Shown: piece by piece, positions 3,629 to 3,664 of the stretch | Layout of the letters: each line of letters opens with the position of its first letter | Position numbering within the stretch: position 1 is the first letter of the stretch | DNA from: Escherichia coli | Lineage (GTDB): Bacteria; Pseudomonadota; Gammaproteobacteria; Enterobacterales; Enterobacteriaceae | Strand: one strand, 5' to 3' | Length of the DNA: 5,656 nt | NCBI RefSeq assembly: GCF_003334765.1 | Contig: NZ_QOWT01000063.1 | Program-made: the position numbers and the translations under genes | The notes under the pieces: model-generated | The model's input: the letters and a program-made list of their open reading frames with translations, nothing else | The model's database searches: none | What the model was told of the DNA's origin: nothing

Positions 3629-3664
3629 ACCACAGGGCTGGTTTTCTGCTGCCAGCCCTGTGGT
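3629..3664. other. Perfect 13-bp inverted repeat with 10-bp spacer (strong stem-loop); possible atypical terminator or protein-binding/recombination site
   Basis: Seen in sequence: 3629-3641 ACCACAGGGCTGG pairs perfectly with 3652-3664 CCAGCCCTGTGGT. It begins 10 nt beyond the stop (3674..3676) of the 205-aa gene. No canonical U-tract follows on either strand (minus RNA continues AAAAUACAG, plus RNA continues UCUCAG). Confidence 0.45.

Follow-up and report, generated by a model that had tools for sequence, protein, structure and literature searches.

What might a long and perfect inverted repeat be doing directly behind the last intact gene of an operon, in the position of a terminator and yet with no U-tract on either strand? 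The question is raised by a stretch of 5,656 nucleotides (here called the window) which is part of a chromosomal island of Escherichia coli and is 100% identical to many E. coli chromosomes. The first-pass annotation had pointed out the repeat and offered as alternatives for it an operator, a recombination site or an element which stabilises the RNA at the 3' end of the alpA operon. We would suggest, tentatively and with slightly less than even confidence, that it is an exonuclease-blocking stem-loop which fixes where the message of alpA and orf205 ends after its termination by Rho.

Along the minus strand alpA comes first and is followed by the 205-aa gene, by the hairpin and by some 800-830 nt of unannotated, decayed sequence. 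The two genes are:

4370-4576, minus strand: alpA-type gene, 68 aa, with a Phage_AlpA/excisionase-like HTH; first in the operon.

3674-4291, minus strand: 205-aa ORF, the last intact gene of the alpA operon (200 aa according to PGAP, WP_000813432.1).

Further along this strand, in an annotated copy of the island without IS100 (L001), there are pseudogene fragments of an AAA ATPase and of a hypothetical protein, followed by a 387-aa hypothetical protein and then by a GTPase pseudogene. Another perfect inverted repeat, with arms of 10 bp around a loop of 5 nt (CATTCCTGAAcgtttTTCAGGAATG), is found inside the 387-aa ORF at window positions 825-849. In many otherwise identical strains a 1,955-bp IS100 (IS21 family) is inserted near window position ~2830, a location which led us to reject the hairpin as the target site of this element; in CFT073 ISEc10 additionally interrupts the 205-aa gene.

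AlpA is an excisionase-like regulator of island behaviour, and PF05930 was found in the alpA-type genes of homologous loci. In a PDB sequence search the AlpA of the window showed no more than a faint resemblance to TorI and to 8c3t, a regulator of the AlpA family. Since it gave no detectable match to the Pseudomonas aeruginosa antiterminator AlpA, a link to that protein was rejected and antitermination is not invoked here. For the 205-aa protein neither Pfam nor NCBIfam nor PHROG gave a match. The protein is a member of an uncharacterised Enterobacterales family which follows alpA in islands, with homologues of 57-63% identity in Yersinia, Klebsiella, Salmonella, Serratia and others, and with invariant motifs that include HHPMLEG and WLCW-DL. 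Its AF2 model, of modest confidence with a pLDDT of 65, consists mainly of helices; it produced no PDB fold match below E = 1 in Foldseek, and no DNA-binding fold is recognisable in it. Some copies of the gene (L055, L064) possess in-frame insertions, which explain the lower protein identities of P0001 and P0005.

The repeat was recovered by a repeat search and by a separate scan. Its arms, at 3629-3641 (ACCACAGGGCTGG) and 3652-3664 (CCAGCCCTGTGGT), are 13 nt long, 100% complementary and separated by a 10-nt spacer, which makes it the longest perfect short-spacer inverted repeat within the window. On the sense strand the stem begins 9 nt past the stop codon of the 205-aa gene, so that the perfect 13-bp repeat which had been described just after this gene is there as described. 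Its parts are:

3665-3673, minus strand: 9-nt spacer from the stop codon (TGA, 3674-3676) to the base of the stem.

3629-3664, minus strand: hairpin with a perfect 13-bp stem and a 10-nt loop at 3642-3651 (sense-strand loop CAGCAGAAAA).

3620-3628, minus strand: flank AAAAUACAG (sense), directly 3' of the stem; conserved, and the putative mature 3' end of the RNA.

The hairpin is presumed to belong to the minus strand from the orientation of the genes; the asymmetry of its G.U pairs does not settle the strand. For the isolated hairpin the predicted folding energy of the sense strand is -26.6 kcal/mol (z = -5.9) and that of the plus strand -29.4 kcal/mol (z = -8.1). When the window was shuffled 300 times with its dinucleotides preserved, one shuffle reached a 13-bp stem with a loop of 3-20 nt; analytically, 0.0015 such repeats are expected per window, which bears out the earlier remark that a stem of this length is rarely due to chance in 5.6 kb. 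Scaled to a genome of 5 Mb the same expectation amounts, by our own arithmetic, to roughly 1-3 chance repeats. The repeat is thus improbable for this window, yet on a genome-wide scale this by itself is no proof of function.

Efficient intrinsic termination in E. coli needs a U-rich tract directly after the stem. Like an intrinsic terminator the element has a GC-rich hairpin, a few nucleotides past the last stop codon of an operon, but it differs from such terminators in what follows the stem. Along the sense strand this sequence reads AAAAUACAG, along the plus strand UCUCAGAC, and its first 8 nt contain one U in the sense direction (AAAAUACA) and two in the plus direction (UCUCAGAC), that is, there is no U-tract 3' of the stem on either strand. 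A T-run on the plus strand and an A-run on the sense strand do occur, but for transcription in either direction they are on the wrong side of the stem, and a scan for consensus terminators made no call at the hairpin. Because the U-tract is absent we do not regard the hairpin as an intrinsic terminator, and the first-pass annotation was right on its terminator-like placement as well as on the missing tract. Around this stable stem-loop an upstream A-tract and a uridine-rich tail are both absent.

A dispersed repeat of the REP, BIME or MITE-like kind was also considered. Queried with a 58-nt sequence centred on it, the hairpin was found in 1,891 of 5,426 complete E. coli genomes, at a median of one and a maximum of two places per carrier genome, it being understood that the hairpin queries included 20-90 nt of flanking island sequence, which matched too, also in the records labelled as plasmids. 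It was absent from the phage collection and from viral contigs, no Rfam 15 covariance model matched anywhere in the window at E <= 1, and a literature search for the arm sequence returned as its sole match an unrelated human sequence. While the element resembles REP/BIME sequences in being a GC-rich intergenic palindrome downstream of a gene, with a proposed role as a barrier to exonucleases, it differs from them in its single copy, in the absence of a REP consensus and in having neither an Rfam nor a multi-locus BLAST match. A dispersed repeat was therefore rejected on the grounds of the single copy per genome and the empty phage and viral collections; the first-pass annotation had proposed looking for other copies in the genome, and the search yielded only this one.

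The type-A locus, as we term that of the window, is at least 98.7% identical across all 1,891 carrier genomes, which represent one lineage, and for this reason the invariance of the stem among the carriers carries no weight. The only common polymorphism, C3666A (found for example in CFT073), is two bases outside the stem in the 3665-3673 spacer, and the two substitutions of a metagenomic type-A variant (L095) fall in the loop. Such few changes as type A shows leave the stem intact.

How, then, might a hairpin of this kind act? Rho acts on untranslated and on horizontally acquired transcripts. Dar & Sorek 2018 (PMC6061677) reported that Rho-dependent 3' ends in E. coli are found immediately after stable stem-loops without uridine-rich tails or upstream A-tracts, that the sequence downstream of these ends is mildly enriched in C over G, and that such stem-loops protect the RNA against PNPase and RNase II. 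By analogy the repeat would be transcribed as the tail of the alpA-orf205 message, in which it would form a very stable stem-loop just after the last stop codon. RNA polymerase would read through the hairpin into the ~800 nt of decayed, untranslated sequence, and Rho would end transcription at scattered positions downstream. PNPase and RNase II, acting in the 3'-to-5' direction, might then shorten the RNA until they meet the base of the stem, possibly stopping first at a smaller hairpin at 3591-3615. As a result the two-gene message would be stabilised, and its 3' end, on the minus strand near 3622-3628, would be defined and protected. Our inferences in this are three: the choice of the sense strand, the participation of Rho and the stabilising effect of the stem on the RNA. 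The flank at 3620-3628, where we propose to place the 3' end, recurs in the paralogous islands in the form AAAAYACRG, or AAAGCACAA in one variant of type D.

The similarity to the Rho-dependent class of Dar & Sorek extends to the stable stem-loop after the gene, to the absence of a uridine-rich tail and A-tract, to a suggestive mild excess of C over G downstream and to the untranslated RNA which follows and on which Rho could load. It differs from that class in belonging to a non-K-12 island outside their study and in its 13 perfect pairs, which give us the impression of being strong for the class. Two features of the downstream sequence have to be considered in this connection:

3591-3615, strand not assigned: second perfect hairpin, AGCGGCGT-N9-ACGCCGCT, 8 bp, GC-rich, 13 nt past the first.

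2911-3092, minus strand: C-rich, G-poor stretch in the decayed untranslated sequence; by its composition a candidate Rho-loading region.

Read from the plus strand the second hairpin lengthens to 10 bp through the inclusion of a G.U pair, and the weakly U-rich sequence after it, AUUACUGUAUUUU, constitutes a weak terminator-like tail for transcripts running in the opposite direction. A metagenomic variant (L119) has a C-to-T change in this hairpin which keeps a G.U pair on the sense strand. The sense strand of 2911-3092 contains 33-38% C and 12-21% G, with a C/G ratio of 2.2-3.3 over most of the stretch, and a milder excess of C over G (C/G 1.26-1.38) is found over the first ~100 nt directly past the hairpin (3638-3535). 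This enrichment is suggestive of rut-like sequence without being specific, and is modest next to the hairpin; Rho may act at 2911-3092.

Between 2842 and 3670, that is, in the ~800-830 nt of decayed sequence, there is no intact ORF or annotated gene. We considered and rejected a decayed Gp2/YfjJ gene directly downstream: a tblastn search with four family members detected no trace of Gp2/YfjJ coding sequence downstream of the hairpin, and the H60 match behind the idea is a deletion junction only. A conserved small ORF was rejected as well, as only a 16-aa remnant of the ORF of the paralogues is left, and in another frame. With no downstream Gp2 trace and the small ORF a remnant, the alpA-orf205 operon of this lineage for practical purposes ends at the hairpin.

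Paralogous islands, in which the 200-aa genes are ~81-85% identical at the DNA level, fall into several types. Types A, B, D and E have recognisable homology on both sides of the hairpin site, and the AlpA proteins of types A-D are 88-96% identical, while the hairpin arms are unrelated or absent. What follows the stop codon in each type, with the free energy of the best single hairpin, is:

Type A (window): 13-bp stem, -25.6 kcal/mol.

Type B, the commonest paralogous type: stems of 4-5 bp only, about -15 kcal/mol.

Type C (L005, L049, L051): stem-loops right after the stop codon, -26.9 kcal/mol.

Type D (L002 family): a different GC-rich hairpin, -23 to -25.7 kcal/mol.

Type E (L088, L133): another GC-rich hairpin, -22.7 kcal/mol.

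Type F (L127): none, -12.5 kcal/mol.

Strong hairpins are therefore present within ~40 nt of the stop codon in four of the six types (A, C, D and E), with stem sequences that are unrelated, and are missing from types B and F (-12 to -15 kcal/mol). The first stem of type C, of 8 bp, includes two G.U pairs and so works on the sense strand only; types A and D fold about equally well on both strands, and the better strand switches with the orientation of the loop. As to conservation of the repeat in related islands, which the first-pass annotation had suggested examining, it is the presence of a hairpin at this site that is shared by four types, and not the sequence of its stem. That a hairpin is kept in these four while its arms, its loop and the orientation of the loop vary would fit what is predicted for a structural RNA barrier. 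The structure is nevertheless dispensable, as types B and F do without a strong hairpin and more distant relatives have small stems at most. As both strands of types A and D fold about equally well, a role of the sense-strand RNA is a presumption.

Within type D the two orientations can be compared directly. Relative to L057, the segment of L002 (2434-2470) between the arms CCGGGGC and GCCCCGG is inverted: it is identical at 25 of 34 positions when aligned directly and at 33 of 34 when aligned to the reverse complement, while the flanks are collinear and the arms kept. This amounts to a natural flip of the loop at a short palindrome. Type A is linked to type D by a shared 9-mer, GGCAGCAGA, and by the flank only; in the L057 orientation the loop GGCAGCAGAgga aligns with GGCAGCAGAaaa of the window, and the same flank then follows. 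Shared ancestry of the A and D hairpins is suggested by this, the 9-mer being a thin link with, by our estimate, a ~1% chance of arising fortuitously.

In 30 more distant loci, from other genera, there is in general no strong hairpin behind the stop codon and at most a small stem. In some of them a small stem with a partly U-containing tail (GUUUCUGA, GAUUUGAG) is found directly after the same stop codon.

These comparisons bear on the other explanations that might be given. Lavi et al. 2018 (PMC5941160) found perfect inverted repeats with arms of at least 13 bp to be ~150-fold over-represented in the non-coding DNA of E. coli, and attributed this to template-switch correction. The repeat might accordingly be a functionless palindrome which arose from an imperfect repeat and has been kept perfect by intramolecular template switching during replication, in intergenic DNA that is decaying. 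This, the main rival, we consider unlikely, though by no means far-fetched. The window has perfect non-coding arms of the kind that these authors found in excess, and among related loci there is loop inversion and rapid replacement of arms; the inversion between L002 and L057 is of the sort that we would expect of template switching, and this behaviour of spacer and arms among relatives is seen in type D, to which type A is tied as described. The region around the hairpin is pseudogenised, the same 75-nt stretch holds a second perfect hairpin of 8 bp which shrinks to ~4 bp in type E, types B and F lack a strong hairpin, and folding that is symmetric between the strands fits an origin at the level of DNA. 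The model, however, covers origin and maintenance and not function, and is compatible with an RNA barrier, for a palindrome transcribed after a stop codon would still block exonucleases whatever its origin. Furthermore, four of the six types have a strong hairpin equally close behind the stop codon, and that of type C is specific to the sense strand, which exceeds a purely mutational expectation. A weak or factor-dependent terminator, or a pause site, at which the hairpin halts some of the polymerases in the sense or antisense direction, appears less probable again. Its terminator-like position and very stable stem would suit such a site, and the small stems with partly U-containing tails in the distant relatives suggest that transcripts may end here across the family. 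Against it are the one and two U residues on the two strands, the T-run on the wrong side in both directions and the empty terminator scan.

The remaining explanation places the function in the DNA: an operator for AlpA or another island protein, a recombination site, or a site which is nicked by a Gp2/YfjJ-type rolling-circle protein as a hairpin or cruciform. The dyad symmetry is perfect with a spacer of one turn and the two strands fold equally well. In distant relatives, moreover, this position is followed by an inovirus-Gp2/YfjJ-family gene, the order there being alpA, a ~199-aa gene, a gap of 190-420 nt and the Gp2/YfjJ-family gene, all on the same strand; the island of the window also encodes such a protein, though not next to the hairpin. 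We hold a site of this kind to be highly improbable. No Gp2 gene adjoins the hairpin in the window, and the element conserved upstream of the Gp2 genes is a different, AT-rich repeat which the window does not have. An operator, one of the alternatives first proposed, is disfavoured by AlpA being 88-96% identical where the arms are unrelated or missing, by additional half-sites being no more numerous than chance allows across the window and 29.6 kb of the island, and by a 205-aa protein whose model offers no DNA-binding fold. A recombination site, another of them, fares no better: homology among the paralogues runs on both sides, so that there is no module junction here, the IS100 insertion of other strains is ~800 bp away, and the sequence occurs once per genome and in none of the phages or viral contigs. 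In a variant of this explanation the palindrome would be a DNA-level hotspot at which the loop is flipped and the arms are rewritten, and might be the hairpin or cruciform target of an island protein such as a Gp2/YfjJ-type rolling-circle initiator; if so it would mark a replication or mobilisation site of CP4-like islands. This is the least probable of the ideas considered.

Of the alternatives first listed we hence favour the last, an element for the stability of the RNA where the alpA operon ends, based upon its position behind the last gene, the missing U-tract, the mild excess of C over G and the potential for a hairpin in four of the six types. Should the exonuclease-blocking stem-loop be real, it would set the 3' end and the lifetime of the mRNA for AlpA and the 205-aa protein in about one third of sequenced E. 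coli genomes. It would be useful for annotating the boundary of the operon and is unsurprising, because many E. coli transcripts end at stem-loops that have no U-tract; the hairpin would be a new instance of a common and known kind of element, and it opens no new question. The sister islands provide a natural example of the turnover of palindromes, with different hairpins at one site and one clear inversion of a loop.

The AT-rich element of the distant relatives is an inverted repeat of 49 nt, GGGAGT(G/T)AAAATTAATATNGGTTAATTAATATAATTAATAGGCACTCCC, which varies hardly at all among 13 loci (L012 [3134-3182], L013, L014, L016-L018, L022-L024, L027, L028, L030 and L037) that represent eight genera or more, and which is absent from the window and from L001. 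It is found 35-95 nt past the stop codon of the 199-aa gene, upstream of the inovirus-Gp2/YfjJ-family gene, and its conservation seems to exceed by far that of the coding sequence beside it. The element may be a promoter or operator, or an origin-like site for the Gp2-type protein. In two Klebsiella loci (L010 and L011, from 4272 onward) the module of alpA, the 199-aa gene and Gp2 is located directly upstream of a BREX cluster (brxA, brxB, brxC).
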